Source: a virus
Virus record (IMG/VR): IMGVR_UViG_3300032309_001318
Span: 1-64,000 of that record
DNA: 64,000 bases
Direction: 5' to 3' (one strand)
Part shown: positions 20,756 to 29,417 of the stretch, in pieces
How the letters are laid out: every line of letters begins with the position of its first letter
How positions within the stretch are numbered: the first letter of the stretch is position 1
Program-made: the position numbers and the translations under genes
Notes under the pieces: model-generated
The model's database searches: none
Seen by the model: the letters and a program-made list of their open reading frames with translations, nothing else
Told to the model about the DNA's origin: nothing

Positions 20756-22045
20756 ATGTCAAAACAAGCAGGTAGAATGAGCCAATCGGCTAATGACTTT
20801 TTAGAGCCATTTAAGCCAATTATCGGAACAGCAACAGATATAGGAACAGATAGAGCATTTAATAATGGAGCCGCATCTGTACCATTTACAATGAGCGTAG
20901 ATTCACCACCAGCTACTTCATATACAGTTACCTCAAGTCCAGGAAGTTATACTGCTTCTGGATCTTCTTCTCCTATTACGGTACAAGGTTTACAATCTGG
21001 AACTAGTTATACATTTACAGTTATAGCTACAAACTCAGTTGGTAATTCTGTGCCGTCAGACGCAAGTAATTCAATAACAGCAACAACAGTTCCACAAACA
21101 CCAAGCGCTCCAAGTCTTTCAAATAATGGAGCAGAAACGAACTCTGTTTCTTGGTCAGCCCCAGGAAATAATGGTGGAAAAGAAATTACTGGATATGGAT
21201 TAATTGATCATGAAAATGATGTTACGTCATATAACTCTAGTACATTTAGCGCTAACCTATCAGAAAACGGAAATGAAACCCAGACTGTTAGAGTAAGGGC
21301 TCAAAATGCTAATGGATTCTCATCATACAGCTCTAGCTCAAACTCAGTTACTACAACACCATTTAGCTTTAGCCCATTTGGATTTACCCCATTTGGATTT
21401 ACACCGTTTGGATTCACACCATTTGGCTTTACACCATTTGGCTTTACACCATTTGGCTTTACTCCAAAATCGGTTGGAGCAGAAACAGTTATTAAATCAA
21501 AGGTGCCAGAAGGATTAATTCTTGCACACAACCTAAGCGTTGGCGACGTTTTATACTCTGCTAATATCGAGGGAATAGATGTTTCAAATACAGCAATAGT
21601 AGATTACATACAAAATTGGTCTGTTAGTAGCGCAAACATATCCCCAGCCGAAACTACCATTGTTGCAATGGCAGCAAGAATTGCTGACGAAGGAGCTATT
21701 GTTATTAATGGAAATAAATATTCTTTACAGCACTTTATTTTAGTAAAAAGAGATGGACAGATTCAATTCCAACCATCATCAAGCGTATTGGAAACAGATT
21801 TAATTTTTTCACCAAGCGAAAATAACTGGAAAGAAATCACAGACTATAAAGTAACTACACAAAAAGAGTTACTAATATCAATTGACGTAGAGCCATACGA
21901 CGTATTCTTTACAGACAATGCGCTAGTACACGATTCATATAGAGCAAAAACTGATCCAAACGCATTAACTTCTAGCGACGAGACATTTAGCGACAAGTTG
22001 GATGCAATGTATCAGCAATGGAGAGATTCTCAAGACCAAGCCTAG
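20756..22045 (+). CDS. FN3-FN3 + (PFGFT)n repeat + Hint domain protein
   Basis: GLQSGTSYTFTVIATN and WSAP...VRVRAQNANG FN3 motifs; Hint 21470-21934 ending LVHD-S. Confidence 0.8.
   Translation: MSKQAGRMSQSANDFLEPFKPIIGTATDIGTDRAFNNGAASVPFTMSVDSPPATSYTVTSSPGSYTASGSSSPITVQGLQSGTSYTFTVIATNSVGNSVPSDASNSITATTVPQTPSAPSLSNNGAETNSVSWSAPGNNGGKEITGYGLIDHENDVTSYNSSTFSANLSENGNETQTVRVRAQNANGFSSYSSSSNSVTTTPFSFSPFGFTPFGFTPFGFTPFGFTPFGFTPFGFTPKSVGAETVIKSKVPEGLILAHNLSVGDVLYSANIEGIDVSNTAIVDYIQNWSVSSANISPAETTIVAMAARIADEGAIVINGNKYSLQHFILVKRDGQIQFQPSSSVLETDLIFSPSENNWKEITDYKVTTQKELLISIDVEPYDVFFTDNALVHDSYRAKTDPNALTSSDETFSDKLDAMYQQWRDSQDQA
21359..21466 (+). repeat. 15-bp coding tandem repeat PFSFS-(PFGFT)x6-P
   Basis: CCATTTGGMTTTACH-like units with synonymous variation only. 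Confidence 0.95.
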
Positions 22046-22060
22046 CAGTCAGGAATTAAT

Positions 22061-22708
22061 TTGTTTAAAAAAGTAAAGAAATTACGCTTAATGGGAATTT
22101 CTGGAGTTAGGTATTTTAAAGGTAAACCTGTACCTAAATTTAGAAGGTATCCACAATACATAAAAGGTACTTGGGCACAATATACAGTGCTTACCGATAA
22201 AGGGAATTCTCAAGCTATAGAATGTCTTTATAAAAATGATGATAATGAGTCTGGCACAATTGTTATGTCTTATTTTATTAACAACGATTATCCAGCATCT
22301 TGGGCTACAATAATTATAGACGGATATGATAAAGATCACTATACTGCAATAACAGATAGGTTTTATACTAGCCCAATACATCGAAAGAAAAAGTACATAG
22401 AATCATTAGCTTTAATTGGATATCCAATATGGTGTACATTTTTTAACATTTTACCAAGATTAGGCCCAGGCTATACACAAGGGACACAGGCCGTAGCATT
22501 AAGCGGATCCTCCCTCATAGCATCAGCAACTAAAAAAAGGTTTAATTTAAACAAAGATAAAATTGAAAAAATAGTTAAGGTTGGGATGACACCTGGGGAA
22601 CTTCCTGAAATAAATATGCCAGCAGAATTAGTCATATACAAAGATCCGATATTTCCAGCATTATTTCACTCTATGAGCATTTGGGAGCCAAATGATAAAA
22701 AATATTAA
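22061..22708 (+). CDS. Hypothetical protein, possibly degenerate GNAT fold
   Basis: AGGA RBS before TTG; RFYTSPIHRKK weakly resembles GNAT motif A. Confidence 0.55.
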   Translation: MFKKVKKLRLMGISGVRYFKGKPVPKFRRYPQYIKGTWAQYTVLTDKGNSQAIECLYKNDDNESGTIVMSYFINNDYPASWATIIIDGYDKDHYTAITDRFYTSPIHRKKKYIESLALIGYPIWCTFFNILPRLGPGYTQGTQAVALSGSSLIASATKKRFNLNKDKIEKIVKVGMTPGELPEINMPAELVIYKDPIFPALFHSMSIWEPNDKKY

Positions 22709-23255
22709 TTCAATTAATAACAAAACTATGCTTTCCGAGTATAATAAAATGATCTCTCAGATGCACGAATATGTTTATAAATTTAATCCAGGAATTAAGC
22801 TAGGGTTTAAACCTAAAAAAGTTTCTTTAATTGATTATAAAACATTTAACTTTTTTGCAATGTATAACAAAAACATTCATATTCTATATAAAGAAATATC
22901 TGATTTAACAAAAGAATATTGCATTAAAAATGGAGTTAATTTTGAAAGAAATTATTTTTATTTACTTGGCAATATAGTTAAAAAAGAAACTATTACATTA
23001 GACACATATCTAAATTTTGCACCTAATTATAAAACTACATTTGTTGGATTTTATGTTATAGATTGCAATAAAGATCAAATTTTTATAAATGATGAAAAAA
23101 TTGATTTAATTCCTGGACAATTAATATTTTTAGATTCATCATCAAAGATATTGTTTAAAAAAATAAGTGATGGTTTGACAATACTATCATTTAATATCTC
23201 TCCGCTGGAGTATCTATACAGACAGTACTATCAGAAATGGATACCTTTAGCATGA
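22692..23255 (+). CDS. 2OG-Fe(II) oxygenase-like protein lacking obvious metal ligands
   Basis: Aligns by eye with 25424 and 26065 (F/YN.F, LYK, GFY/GYY, WIP end) but no HxD...H. Confidence 0.6.
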   Translation: MIKNINSINNKTMLSEYNKMISQMHEYVYKFNPGIKLGFKPKKVSLIDYKTFNFFAMYNKNIHILYKEISDLTKEYCIKNGVNFERNYFYLLGNIVKKETITLDTYLNFAPNYKTTFVGFYVIDCNKDQIFINDEKIDLIPGQLIFLDSSSKILFKKISDGLTILSFNISPLEYLYRQYYQKWIPLA

Positions 23256-28072: not shown

Positions 28073-28074
28073 TA

Positions 28075-28728
28075 ATGCAATATCAAGAGTTGGCTTTAGG
28101 CGTTGTGTATTATAAAAATATTATAAAAGATCCCAATGAACTAATTAATAAAATAGAGTCTTTAGAAGAAAAAAGAAGCCTACAAAAAGACTATAGGTCA
28201 CAATCAGTAAAGCCTTGGCAAGCATGGGACTATGATCACGGCAATAAAGAAAAAACAATATTCTGTTGGCAAAAATTTTTACCAAAGCCAAATGATATAG
28301 ATGTTAATGATTATTTTTATAAAGAACAACACGAAATATCTTCTGAGTTATTTAATGGTTTAGAAGATGGATTAAAACATTATTTTTCATTATATCCATA
28401 TGCTGAAAAAAATATTAAATCTAGAGAAAAAACAATGCACCTATTAAAATATAAAGAAAGCGGATTCCTACCAGCCCACTCAGACCATGGTATAAGCAGT
28501 AGAGTTTTATCGGCACTTCTTTATTTAAATGACGATTATGAAGGTGGCAACATAAGATTCCCGCATTGTAATATTGACATGAAGCCAGAAGCTGGAAGCC
28601 TATTGTTTTTCCCATCAAATTTTGTTTACGTTCACGAAGTTGATGCGGTAACAAGCGGAACAAGATATTCATTGCCAAACTGGTATCATAATAGAAAAAA
28701 CGCATACTACTCAGACGGGACAGAATAA
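28075..28728 (+). CDS. Prolyl 4-hydroxylase-like 2OG-Fe(II) oxygenase
   Basis: AHSD...LYLNDDYEGGNIRFP...FFPSN...HEVDAVTSGTRYS. Confidence 0.88.
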   Translation: MQYQELALGVVYYKNIIKDPNELINKIESLEEKRSLQKDYRSQSVKPWQAWDYDHGNKEKTIFCWQKFLPKPNDIDVNDYFYKEQHEISSELFNGLEDGLKHYFSLYPYAEKNIKSREKTMHLLKYKESGFLPAHSDHGISSRVLSALLYLNDDYEGGNIRFPHCNIDMKPEAGSLLFFPSNFVYVHEVDAVTSGTRYSLPNWYHNRKNAYYSDGTE

Positions 28729-29417
28729 TGATTATAGTAACTGGATCGAGCAGGGGAATTGGGAATGTAATAGCAAATAGGCTTTCTAAAAATGGATATG
28801 ATGTCATTGGCATATCAAGAGGTATGCCTCAAAACGATGTATCCTTTAAAACTTATCAAGCAGACGTAAGCCAAAAAAATACCTTAACTCCAATATTTGA
28901 AGATTTAAAAGAAAAAAATATTACAGTACAAGCTTTAATAAATTGTGCTGGAATACTAGAAACCCCATTTGTAGACTGGCTAACAATAGAACAGAGCGAA
29001 ATGGAATCAATATTTTCTACAAACGTAATAGGAACAATGAATTCTTGTCAAGTGTTTTTACCATTAATGGACAAAAAACAACATACACCAATAATAAATA
29101 TGGCAAGCCTATCAGCGCATTCAGTAACCGATTTTGCAATATATGGGGCAAGCAAGCATGCAGTATATGGATTTACAAAATCTTTAGCAAAAAAATTACA
29201 AAATACATCTATCAGACCAAACTGCATATCACCAGGCCCAATAAAATCAACAATGACAGAGGGCATACCAGACATGGCTTTTAAGCTATTTGCTGGCCCA
29301 CAAATTATTAACCGAACAGTGTTCACATCTGACGACATATGCAATATTGTAGAGCTTTTGCTTGACCCAAAATCAAGTAGTTTAACTGGACAAGCATTCC
29401 ACATTGGTGGATACTAA
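28728..29417 (+). CDS. Short-chain dehydrogenase/reductase (FabG-like)
   Basis: TGSSRGIG, NCAG, S...YGASK, NCISPG. Confidence 0.92.
   Translation: MIIVTGSSRGIGNVIANRLSKNGYDVIGISRGMPQNDVSFKTYQADVSQKNTLTPIFEDLKEKNITVQALINCAGILETPFVDWLTIEQSEMESIFSTNVIGTMNSCQVFLPLMDKKQHTPIINMASLSAHSVTDFAIYGASKHAVYGFTKSLAKKLQNTSIRPNCISPGPIKSTMTEGIPDMAFKLFAGPQIINRTVFTSDDICNIVELLLDPKSSSLTGQAFHIGGY

Follow-up and report, generated by a model that had tools for sequence, protein, structure and literature searches.

A predicted self-cutting repeat protein encoded beside phage oxygenase genes

Introduction

An uncultured lake phage encodes a fibre-region protein in which a greasy Pro-Phe-Gly-Phe-Thr repeat is capped by a domain with an intein-like, presumably self-cutting fold, and the gene of this protein is followed by eleven tightly packed enzyme or enzyme-like genes. 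Related phages keep this pairing, which makes the repeat a likely, but unproven, target of these enzymes. The locus lies in a 64,000-nucleotide stretch of record IMGVR_UViG_3300032309_001318 (hereafter the window), and its genes from 15096 to 31182 discussed below are on the + strand. A sequence-only reading had proposed that the phage hydroxylates and glycosylates Pro, Phe and Thr in the repeat by means of a ten-gene tailoring operon, following the logic of RiPP biosynthesis and of Skp1 modification, and that Hint cleavage leaves the modified repeat as a C-terminal fibre tip. What that reading observed in the sequence is confirmed by our analysis. Its interpretation is only partly supported, as the chemistry remains inferred, the gene set is not a fixed unit and the RiPP analogy is not supported. 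Our literature searches on Hint or intein-like domains in phages found no published description of the module.

The repeat-Hint protein

The repeat-Hint gene (20756-22045) codes for 429 residues. Its conserved N-terminus and two FN3 domains (20756-21358) match PF00041 in two stretches (7.7e-10) as well as the minor tail protein family phrog_6977 (4e-8). There follows PFSFS-(PFGFT)6-PK (21359-21469), where Tandem Repeats Finder identifies a 15-nt period, with 7.4 copies and 87% matches, at 21356-21466. Translation yields PFSFS (21359-21373), six PFGFT units (21374-21463), then PK and Ser239. The six units differ in 4 of 15 columns, all at third codon positions and all synonymous, which had been taken as evidence that the peptide is under selection. 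A random substitution in these codons is synonymous with p=0.244, giving 0.0036 for four events and 0.00087 for five. This is more than chance, but the sample is small, and stronger evidence comes from the persistence of the peptide repeat in relatives whose Hint part is only 47-60% identical. Copy number varies from about 2 to 11 in relatives, and one RNA-library contig lacks 30 nt at this place.

The Hint-fold domain, predicted to be autoprocessing, spans 155 residues from Ser239 to Asp393 (21470-21934). Its junction is K238|S239, block B is S-L-Q-H and the domain ends with V-H-D, as seen in the invariant columns of the family alignment. No Pfam Hint model matched at E<=0.1. However, an AlphaFold2 model of residues 236-429 (pLDDT 78.7, the first 21 residues, which include the junction, being modelled with low confidence) matched only Hint-fold proteins in ranks 1-28 of a search of 48,161 PDB chains, with Hedgehog HhC (1at0) at Z 11.3, the NpuDnaB intein at 10.6, BIL2 (6tmm) at 10.4 and 2lwy at 9.7. 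The top Foldseek hits were inteins and a BIL domain. Among 36 lineages position 1 is Ser in 26 and Cys in 10. A 36-residue tail starting with Ser394, predicted to be helical at its end, and the stop codon complete the gene (21935-22045). In 266 family representatives the domain sits at the extreme C-terminus, and most end 0-4 residues after H-[DN], as do most members outside this lineage. Self-removal is therefore the only chemistry that the whole family can share.

Immediately upstream lies a fibre protein of the Mtd_N type (18566-20731; PF18454, 2.4e-17). Further upstream, a paralogue (15096-16079) combines an N-terminal domain that reads, by eye, like PASTA, a short F-x-F-T-P repeat with Pro-rich spacers, a Hint domain and a tail. 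It is 57% identical to the repeat-Hint protein over 239 residues (62% identity, E 5e-70, in a search of genomes).

The downstream genes

From the Hint gene to the SDR gene there are eleven ORFs (g1 to g11), not ten, with successive spacings of +15, -17, -19, -4, -23, 0, -19, -19, -1, -7 and -1 nt. No + strand terminator-like site lies between 18013 and 33171. The families are mostly as the sequence-only reading had named them, with some reservations. The product of g1 (22061-22708), read as a possible GNAT, belongs to a family with no assigned function: the window protein has no Pfam hit, and PF00583 matched only 3 of 20 family members (best E 0.014), so that the GNAT label remains weak. Five proteins are of the 2OG-oxygenase type. 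Two are P4H-like, g9 (27530-28072; phrog_61, 1e-19, with H-I-D, H and R motifs in the alignment) and g10 (28066-28728; PF13640, 2.5e-16, 60.8 bits against a cut-off of 27). Two more form an orphan family with a predicted 2OG-Fe(II) oxygenase fold, g6 (25424-26071) and its paralogue g7 (26053-26715; 44% identity, E 2e-50). The AlphaFold2 model of g6 (pLDDT 75.7) best matched 2rg4, an uncharacterised protein, at Z 12.8, followed by prolyl hydroxylases at Z 9-10, and a Foldseek search also pointed to the 2OG-oxygenase fold. The fifth, g2 (22692-23255), is a degenerate relative of g6/g7 that lacks their conserved His residues (hhalign probability 96.6%, E 6.8e-10).

Three DUF6065-like proteins had been proposed, of which two stand. 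These are g3 (23237-23971; phrog_7084, 7e-42; PF19541 at 22.2 bits against a cut-off of 26.6, while some listed relatives carry PF19541) and its paralogue g5 (24674-25423; 29% identity to g3, E 3e-28; phrog_7084, 3e-37), DUF6065 being below its cut-off in both. The third, g4 (23968-24696), is doubtful, with an hhalign probability of 26% (E 7e-4) and no informative Pfam hit. The glycosyltransferase candidate g8 (26697-27530) is GT60-like by weak evidence only: PF11397 scored 19.0 bits against a cut-off of 21, over residues 12-57 only, although 23 of the 30 nearest ESM Atlas clusters carry PF11397. By contrast, g11 (28728-29417) is a classical short-chain dehydrogenase/reductase (SDR, 1e-38; PF13561, 5.6e-38; PF00106, 1.1e-37), even though it falls below every NCBIfam cut-off. 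Between the cluster and the portal gene (31582-33165; PF04860, 4.8e-35) lies g12 (29443-31182), a ConA-like/Laminin_G_3 protein (PF13385, 1.5e-12) that belongs to the context and is probably structural.

Conservation of the neighbourhood

The repeat-Hint gene and the enzyme genes form a conserved neighbourhood reaching far beyond this lineage. In 33 of 39 loci found with the window's Hint, at least g1 follows the last Hint gene, and 25 of these show hits to g1-g11, in most in the window's order. We also found loci with a different Hint subfamily preceded by other linkers, namely poly-Pro, (PPxx)n, (NPGF)n and (PPYDN)n. In 72 of 72 eligible loci a cluster-family homologue lies within 3 kb downstream, with g1 in 60, g2/6/7 in 58 and P4H-like genes in 41. 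At the level of lineages (clusters at 70% identity), 36 of 36 usable Hint lineages from uncultured phage contigs have at least one of these families within 9 kb downstream, whatever low-complexity linker precedes the Hint. To be sure, all loci come from related uncultured phages, none of these counts is corrected for phylogeny, and the lineages that came from a g6-based scan contain an oxygenase by construction.

Whether repeat sequence co-varies with enzyme content had been set as a test beforehand, and it gave a positive but uncorrected signal. P4H-like genes lie within 9 kb in 24 of 30 lineages with at least 8% Pro in the linker, and in 1 of 6 with less (Fisher p=0.006). However, the cluster is not a fixed unit. 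The glycosyltransferase gene occurs in only 11 of 36 lineages and DUF6065 in 19 of 36. In three of four whole records of more distant relatives (G001, G003 and G004), the Hint gene carries (FGA)n and lies away from the g4-g9 block, about 58 kb away in G001, and only a g3-like gene follows it closely. Furthermore, the (FGA)n and (GFYH)n linkers of some relatives have no Pro or Thr to hydroxylate or glycosylate, and the window's first paralogue has no adjacent enzymes.

Interpretation

We interpret the locus as the PFGFT flavour of a widespread, undescribed phage module, in which a fibre-region protein carries binding or spacer domains, then a Pro/aromatic low-complexity tract, then a C-terminal Hint domain. 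The genes that follow encode g1 and 2OG-Fe(II) oxygenases and, in this lineage, also DUF6065 proteins, a GT60-like transferase and an SDR. In the most likely course of events, the genes would be expressed late, together with the fibre and portal genes. The oxygenases would act on the low-complexity tract, with the P4H-like g9 and g10 hydroxylating its prolines, while g8 may add a sugar to the hydroxyproline or threonine. The Hint domain would then make an ester at Lys238-Ser239 and remove itself and its tail, leaving the modified repeat as the free C-terminal end of a virion appendage. The domain architecture, the Hint fold with its conserved nucleophile and block-B His, the enzyme folds and families and the conserved gene neighbourhood rest on the data presented here, whereas co-expression, autocleavage, every substrate assignment and the role of the product are inferences. 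With no modification yet observed, and with an order of genes that could be inherited synteny inside a late operon, we give this reading about an even chance of being correct.

A possible, if less favoured, alternative is that the enzymes act on other targets, such as other fibre or virion proteins, host envelope components or metabolites. Their position would then be inherited gene order in the late structural operon, the repeat only a flexible or sticky linker, and the Hint a self-removing folding or assembly cap. Indeed, all evidence for a link is positional and comes from one broad group of related phages, and the enzyme set varies widely between lineages. In the lineage of G001, G003 and G004 the g4-g9 block sits next to genes that read, by eye, like secreted proteases and a protein with a PEPT-type Pro-rich tract. 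In the window, the neighbouring fibre (13765-15126) has its own K-P-T-L-F-type repeats that could be substrates. Against this view, adjacency holds in 36 of 36 lineages despite different linkers, different N-terminal domains and Hint identity down to about 30-40%. After rearrangements, at least one cluster gene still directly follows the Hint gene, g3-like in G001, G003 and G004 and g6-like in another type of locus (L090). The association of Pro with P4H argues in the same direction.

A more doubtful proposal is a Hedgehog-like transfer, where the Hint ester would be resolved not by water but by a nucleophile, so that the C-terminus of the repeat becomes covalently joined to a small molecule, a glycan or another protein, g1 and some of the cluster enzymes making, activating or positioning that nucleophile. 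The best fold match is the Hedgehog autoprocessing domain, with BIL2 following, and g1, with its weak acyl-transfer (GNAT) signal, is the most constant immediate neighbour of the Hint gene (60 of 72 loci) and the commonest one downstream of Ser-type Hint genes. It tracks the Ser-type nucleophile, being present in 20 of 26 Ser-type and 0 of 10 Cys-type lineages (p=3e-5, uncorrected for phylogeny), but this may reflect a single loss in one clade. The GNAT assignment is below every threshold, no adduct-recognition region is known and the 36-residue tail is absent from most of the family. Finally, it is unlikely that the cluster modifies phage DNA or nucleotides by oxygenase and glycosyltransferase chemistry on bases and has nothing to do with the repeat protein: 2OG oxygenases together with glycosyltransferases are components of phage DNA hypermodification, and g3 homologues in haloarchaeal viruses (myoviruses) lie next to thymidylate synthase and DNA polymerase genes, but the cluster is embedded between fibre and portal genes on one strand, no methyltransferase, kinase or nucleotide-metabolism gene was found within it, g10 matches the P4H-type family PF13640, and NgTET1 appears among the fold matches of g6 only at Z 7.6 and rank 38.

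Related systems

The bacterial intein-like (BIL) domains and the Hedgehog/Hog C-terminal autoprocessing domain, both of the Hint superfamily, share the fold, a Ser or Cys at position 1, a [ST]-x-x-H block B, a penultimate His and a location in a non-enzyme host protein without a homing endonuclease. The present domain differs in that no Pfam Hint model recognises it, in its use, in this lineage, of Ser1 and a His-Asp end followed by Ser and the 36-residue tail, and in its presence on phage fibre-region proteins, always after a Pro/aromatic low-complexity tract. RiPP clusters also place a repeated peptide next to tailoring enzymes. However, no short precursor, leader, recognition element, dedicated peptidase or cyclase was found at the locus, and the repeat is part of a 429-residue FN3 protein in a virion structural operon. 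The intramolecular chaperone domains of phage tail spikes and fibres (Peptidase_S74 type) are likewise C-terminal domains thought to remove themselves after doing their job, but their fold and chemistry are unrelated, with a Ser-Lys dyad rather than Hint ester chemistry, and no S74 match was seen in Pfam.

In the Skp1 pathway of Dictyostelium and Toxoplasma (PhyA, Gnt1), a P4H-type oxygenase is paired with a GT60-type transferase that glycosylates the hydroxyproline, hydroxylated Skp1 being a substrate for Gnt1 (PMC3515798). Dictyostelium PhyA (6t8m) is among the fold matches of g6, yet only the weak GT60 signal of g8 supports the analogy. There is no Skp1-like target, the target here would be a repeat and not a single Pro, and the glycosyltransferase is absent from 25 of 36 Hint lineages. 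A precedent is the chlorovirus PBCV-1, which encodes both a P4H-type 2OG oxygenase and proteins with short Pro-containing tandem repeats, and whose P4H hydroxylates Pro-Ala-Pro-Lys repeats (PMC3634087). That virus infects algae, not bacteria, whereas the repeat considered here is aromatic and Hint-capped, accompanied by many more enzymes and a putative target of hydroxylation only. The PBCV-1 enzyme (5c5t) is itself among the fold matches of g6, at Z 8.9.

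Genomic setting and the repeat

The stretch analysed covers the first 64 kb of an 84,539-bp IMG/VR virus record that is estimated to be 78% complete, with a G+C content of 0.29-0.41. A megablast search of the whole locus against 50,697 GenBank phage records found no match. The portal protein (31582-33165, PF04860, E 4.8e-35) is 55-59% identical to portals of large Streptomyces phages, and 127 of the 196 matching records are Streptomyces phages, so that an actinobacterial host is a reasonable inference, drawn from this similarity alone. Of the 22 public sequencing runs listed as matching, 13 hold half or more of the sampled words of the stretch; the runs that hold any of it come from 14 studies and most are labelled as freshwater or lake metagenomes, although one of them may be the source sample itself.

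Tandem Repeats Finder reports a 15-nt period at 21356-21466, with 7.4 copies and 87% matches. Translation gives PFSFS, six PFGFT units, then Pro-Lys and Ser239. The six units differ in four of 15 columns, and every difference is a synonymous change at a third codon position. As a random substitution in these codons is synonymous with p=0.244, this gives 0.0036 for four events and 0.00087 for five, which is suggestive, but the sample is small. A better argument for selection on the peptide is that the repeat recurs, with about 2 to 11 units, in every intact Hint protein of 39 related loci, where the Hint part is 47-96% identical to that of the window. Eleven ORFs, and not ten as in the sequence-only reading, follow the repeat-Hint gene (20756-22045) up to and including the SDR gene, with spacings of +15, -17, -19, -4, -23, 0, -19, -19, -1, -7 and -1 nt, start codons being taken as the first in-frame start. 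No terminator-like site was found on the + strand between 18013 and 33171, while a scan for consensus promoters was no richer than shuffled sequence (81 sites against 79.2 expected). The enzyme block has clearly lower G+C (0.29-0.32 for 22001-28000) than the fibre genes that precede it (0.38-0.41 for 16001-22000), and this could reflect amino-acid composition or a different history. With this correction to the gene count, the observation of a Hint-capped PFGFT repeat followed by a tightly packed enzyme cluster holds.

Contigs from two metatranscriptome libraries of different studies cover the Hint gene, one (run X19) at 21293-22102 and the other (run X20) at 21417-21587 and 21623-22042; the former also covers parts of g8, the putative glycosyltransferase gene of the cluster, and of g12, a gene for a ConA-like protein located between the cluster and the portal gene. 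Such libraries can contain DNA, and we do not count this as proof of expression, nor do uncovered parts carry any meaning. The X19 contig lacks 30 nt at 21386, which removes two PFGFT units in frame and shows natural variation in copy number.

The Hint domain

Pfam detects only two FN3 stretches in the repeat-Hint protein (7.7e-10), and no Hint-type family matched at E<=0.1. By contrast, an alignment of 13 C-terminal domains displays an invariant Lys-Ser junction, the motif N-K-Y-[ST]-x-x-H, with an invariant His that corresponds to block B (T-x-x-H) of the Hint superfamily, and the terminal motif E-P-Y-D-V-F-F-T-D-N-x-L-V-H-D-S. A profile of this alignment retrieved a single PDB sequence, the DNA-polymerase split intein 9hth, at E 0.063, the match extending from block B to the C-terminus. 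The AlphaFold2 model of residues 236-429 has a pLDDT of 78.7 and a pTM of 0.78, but its first 21 residues, which include the junction and the presumed nucleophile, are below 50. When this model was compared with 48,161 PDB representatives using VIA-align, ranks 1-28 were all Hint-fold chains (Z 11.3 to 5.8), with Hedgehog HhC at Z 11.3 (rmsd 2.8, 124 aligned), the NpuDnaB intein at Z 10.6 and Tetrahymena BIL2 at Z 10.4. The best Foldseek hits were likewise inteins and the Clostridium BIL domain (E 2e-5 to 1e-3). The fold assignment is therefore sound, and the Hint call of the sequence-only reading stands.

In the numbering of the window protein the junction is Lys238|Ser239, the domain ends at Asp393, and Ser394 starts a 36-residue tail whose end is predicted to be helical. 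At position 1 of the domain, Ser is present in 26 and Cys in 10 of 36 lineages. Where a splicing intein has His-Asn followed by Cys, Ser or Thr, the window protein has His-Asp followed by Ser, and relatives have H-N-K-stop, H-D-S or Y-D-G. A paralogue at 15096-16079 (57% identity over 239 residues) carries a shorter, degenerate repeat behind a different N-terminus that reads, by eye only, like a PASTA domain. This makes up a duplicated cassette, at 13765-16079 and 18566-22045, in which an Mtd_N-type fibre gene is followed by a gene that combines a binding domain, an F-rich repeat and a Hint domain, each time with a different N-terminal domain.

The Hint family at large

A profile search of 1.84 billion cluster representatives found 266 proteins at E<=0.001. 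In nearly all of the 150 that were listed, the domain ends the protein, and most stop 0-4 residues after H-[DN]. Protein splicing, where a domain interrupts a host protein whose two parts are then ligated, therefore cannot be the common function of the family, whereas removal of the domain at its N-terminal junction can be. Twenty-five of the 150 have at least three F-[GSA]-F motifs just before the domain, and others have (GPPx)n, (PPYxN)n, (FPPYFPP)n, poly-Pro, (GFYH)n or (FFPFFQAP)n at the same place. PFGFT is thus one flavour of a general rule, namely that a Pro/aromatic low-complexity tract precedes the Hint. Two different types of Hint can coexist on one contig: in a distant relative (locus L132), a further Hint protein at 19194-20837 has a (PPGFF/PPRFF)n linker and a Cys at the junction.

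Among cultured phages, a weak tblastn match (E 5e-5, 32.5% over 80 residues) lies at the extreme C-terminus of an annotated tail-fibre protein of Erwinia phage pEa_SNUABM_5. Residues 285-394 of the window protein also match phrog_38766, a 'virion structural protein'. In the literature, papers found on Hint domains together with phage tail fibres concerned, in the two that we examined, terminase inteins, and none of those on bacterial intein-like domains and phages, judged from titles and the beginning of abstracts, concerned phage structural proteins. No paper was found on DUF6065, and none of the papers that we inspected on prolyl 4-hydroxylases and glycosyltransferases in relation with bacteriophage tail fibres was relevant.

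The enzymes

Two genes of the cluster code for P4H-like 2OG-Fe(II) oxygenases. The g10 product (28066-28728) scores 60.8 bits against PF13640, for a cut-off of 27. That of g9 (27530-28072) has no Pfam hit, but it matches phrog_61, a 2OG oxygenase family, at 1e-19, and is 47% identical to the g10 product over 55 residues. Both keep the residues expected of an iron triad and a basic 2OG-binding residue, with H-I-D, then I-H-G, then S-R-Y in g9, and H-S-D, then V-H-E, then T-R-Y in g10, the distal His and Arg being invariant in 12 sequences. That they would hydroxylate peptidyl proline is supported by indirect evidence only, namely an association with Pro-containing linkers.

The product of g6 (25424-26071) has no Pfam, PHROG or NCBIfam hit, yet its model (pLDDT 75.7) is predicted to adopt the double-stranded beta-helix of 2OG oxygenases. 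Its best match is 2rg4, an uncharacterised Oceanicola protein, at Z 12.8, followed by P. putida P4H at 10.1, PHD2 at 9.8, Dictyostelium PhyA at 9.0 and PBCV-1 vCPH at 8.9, and nearly all of the 50 listed entries are 2OG-type oxygenases by title; the fold assignment rests also on a Foldseek search of this model. The g7 product (26053-26715) is 44% identical to that of g6. The g2 product (22692-23255) is related to g6/g7 (hhalign probability 96.6%, E 7e-10) but lacks their conserved His residues. Comparison of alignments with hhalign found no relation between g6/g7 and g9/g10, between DUF6065 and either of these pairs, or between g1 and DUF6065.

The products of g3 (23237-23971) and g5 (24674-25423) belong with phrog_7084 and remain below the cut-off of DUF6065 (PF19541), with 22.2 and 15.4 bits respectively against 26.6, although some of their listed relatives carry a precomputed PF19541 hit and their Atlas neighbours are DUF6065. 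That of g4 (23968-24696) is only doubtfully related to g3/g5 (probability 26%). The g8 product (26697-27530) falls just below the cut-off of the GT60 family PF11397 (19.0 against 21 bits, over residues 12-57 only), while 23 of its 30 nearest ESM Atlas clusters carry PF11397. The g11 product (28728-29417) is a generic classical SDR. As for g1 (22061-22708), the window protein has no hit, and the proposal that it is a GNAT rests on weak matches, with PF00583 touching 3 and PF13508 touching 1 of 20 family members, at a best E of 0.014.

Further searches did not extend these assignments. Tblastn of g6 and g8 against GenBank phages found no match. Profile searches of the g3/g5, g6/g7, g8 and g1 alignments against PDB sequences gave nothing meaningful, NCBIfam gave nothing above cut-off for g1-g10, and Pfam scans of the members of the g6/g7, g1 and g4 alignments gave only chance-level hits. 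A scan of genome contigs with the DUF6065 alignment matched 122 pattern stretches, none of which was confirmed. A scan of viral contigs with g8 gave 35 loci, but mostly on contigs already in our sample, so that it says nothing about GT60-like genes outside this group.

The g3/g5 and g6/g7 families have 2262 and 1347 members, respectively, in the metagenome protein collection; among the 120 listed for each, none has a descriptive name, and their contigs reach about 117 kb. Homologues of g3/DUF6065 (27-31% identity) also occur in 50 GenBank virus records, nearly all of them haloarchaeal tailed viruses. In Halovirus HSTV-2 (NC_020159.1, 8893-9762) the gene lies just after those for thymidylate synthase and DNA polymerase, at the border with the tail module.

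Conservation of the gene neighbourhood

Thirty-nine loci were found through the Hint domain of the window. In 33 of them at least g1 follows the last Hint gene, and in 25 hits to g1-g11 are present, in most cases in the order of the window. Of the six without any cluster hit, four carry the orthologue of the first paralogue and two end within about 1.8 kb of the match. This alone is lineage synteny.

A second scan, performed through g6, found 375 contigs, of which the best 80 were retrieved, and these fall into further classes. Some have (PFGFS)n or (PFxVFGFS)n proteins with a canonical Hint (Cys1 ... T-H-N-K-stop), followed by g4, DUF6065, g6/g7 and g8. Others have (PFxVFGFS)n-Hint genes followed directly by g6- and g7-like genes, with no DUF6065 or GT. 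Finally, 26 of 50 distant loci have no ORF with an F-[GSA]-F repeat within the stretch retrieved (up to 10 kb a side), and four whole records of this class likewise lack the pattern FGF[ST]PF. To read this as absence of the repeat proved partly wrong, because three of the four records hold an FN3-(FGA)n-Hint gene elsewhere, which the pattern could not detect, located in one of them (G001) about 58 kb from the g4-g9 block. In each of the three, a g3-like gene, 46-47% identical to g3, follows closely, while the fourth record (G002, 83% complete) showed no such Hint gene. The enzymes therefore need not all be adjacent to the Hint gene, but some cluster gene stays there.

Upstream of the g4-g9 block of these distant relatives (loci L082, L091, L108-L110 and L114), the genes read by eye as an S-layer-like secreted protein, a large protein with a long (PEPT/PEPS)n Pro-rich tract, a small membrane protein, a 174-residue Ntn-hydrolase-like protein and a secreted subtilisin-like protease; the Pro-rich tract could be another substrate. 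In other distant relatives a small ORF of 75-92 residues, with an R-P-W-D ... C-x-x-C ... C-K-K-C-G-C pattern, recurs inside the Hint-enzyme modules (L129 8386-8613, L132 12374-12601, L175 11483-11761, L201 10736-11005 and L205 2380-2619), and we did not see it in the cluster of the window.

A less biased sample was obtained through a different Hint subfamily with non-FG linkers. Of 80 loci, 72 had an identifiable Hint ORF and at least 3 kb downstream, and all 72 have a homologue of a cluster gene of the window within 3 kb downstream: g1 in 60, g2/6/7 in 58, P4H-like in 41, DUF6065 in 12 and g8 in 1. When all Hint ORFs were pooled using iterated HMMs, 200 ORFs (127 unique proteins) fell into 43 lineages at 70% identity, 36 of which have an intact linker and at least 5 kb downstream. 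Within 9 kb downstream, at least one cluster family is present in 36 of the 36, g2/6/7 in 35 (a count inflated because part of the sample was chosen through g6), P4H-like in 25, g1 in 20, DUF6065 in 19, g4 in 11 and the GT in 11. All of these comparative data come from uncultured contigs, the loci overlap in origin, and the counts are not phylogenetically independent.

Two associations stand out, neither being corrected for shared ancestry. P4H-like genes occur in 24 of 30 lineages with at least 8% Pro in the 50 residues before the Hint, and in 1 of 6 with less (Fisher p=0.006), although the Pro-poor lineages are (GFYH)n and (FGA)n groups that may represent only two independent events. The gene g1 occurs with 20 of 26 Ser-type and 0 of 10 Cys-type Hints (p=3e-5). 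A complex prediction of g1 with the linker, Hint and tail scored 0.00 and returned no verdict, and we count it neither for nor against binding.

Interpretation

The Hint-capped low-complexity protein and a variable set of oxygenases, often with g1, form a real, conserved and widespread gene neighbourhood. The simplest functional reading is that the enzymes act on the tract and that the Hint then removes itself. A viral precedent exists, as the P4H of PBCV-1 hydroxylates Pro-Ala-Pro-Lys repeats (PMC3634087), and the Skp1 route supplies the logic of a P4H followed by a GT60 (PMC3515798). Our analysis establishes the neighbourhood and, through models and alignments, the predicted Hint fold and the assignments of the better recognized enzymes; autocatalytic cleavage at the N-terminal junction, hydroxylation of peptidyl proline, expression of the genes and every choice of substrate are inferred. 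We give the link between the enzymes and the repeat about even odds; that g9 and g10 specifically hydroxylate its prolines is somewhat less likely than that, and glycosylation of the repeat by g8 less likely still.

The interpretation offered by the sequence-only reading, that these ten genes hydroxylate and glycosylate Pro, Phe and Thr of this repeat, is only partly supported. Several results cut against this specific claim: the GT is confined to 11 of 36 lineages, the repeats of some relatives have no Pro or Thr, most of the block can sit far from the Hint gene, and g3 homologues in haloarchaeal viruses sit by thymidylate synthase and DNA polymerase genes. The proposed RiPP logic is not supported either, as nothing resembles a RiPP precursor: the repeat lies in a 429-residue FN3 protein, and Pfam found no RRE or peptidase in g1-g11.

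A bolder reading, which we regard as unlikely although it is not excluded, is that the Hint domain does not simply cut. Its ester would be passed to a nucleophile, so that the enzyme-modified Pro/Phe tail would become covalently anchored, either to another virion protein or to the host cell wall, with g1 acting as the transfer catalyst for the sluggish Ser-type oxyester. The oxygenases and the glycosyltransferase would turn the tail into an adhesive resembling extensin or mussel glue, and the whole would be a phage-encoded, Hedgehog-style covalent adhesin system.

Phage genomes from water are full of 2OG-Fe(II) oxygenase genes with no known substrate. The module described here offers a concrete candidate substrate that can be tested at the bench, a low-complexity tract on a fibre-region protein encoded right next to the enzymes, the composition of which appears to track the enzyme set. 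If the reading is right, tailed phages hydroxylate their virion appendages after translation, perhaps glycosylate them too, and use Hint chemistry to expose or attach the modified end. This would add a new layer to host recognition in abundant freshwater phages, probably phages of actinobacteria if the inference drawn from the portal protein is correct, and it would also supply new Ser-type Hint domains and peptide-modifying oxygenases as tools.

Other features of the window

Between the two fibre-Hint cassettes, an Ala/Thr/Lys-rich fibre-like protein (16720-18099) is built on 57-nt tandem repeats with 78-92% matches and has no Pfam hit. On the opposite strand, a 476-residue ORF (4343-5773, minus strand) has, as read by eye from its translation, a heme-binding signature of the cytochrome P450 type near its C-terminus, and the overlapping 328-residue ORF upstream of it (5767-6753, minus strand) reads, again by eye, like a sulfotransferase; a P450 would be unusual in a phage. 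Finally, two adjacent ORFs at 1780-2325 and 2406-2987 share a C-terminal segment of about 60 residues (29% identity, E 1e-7).
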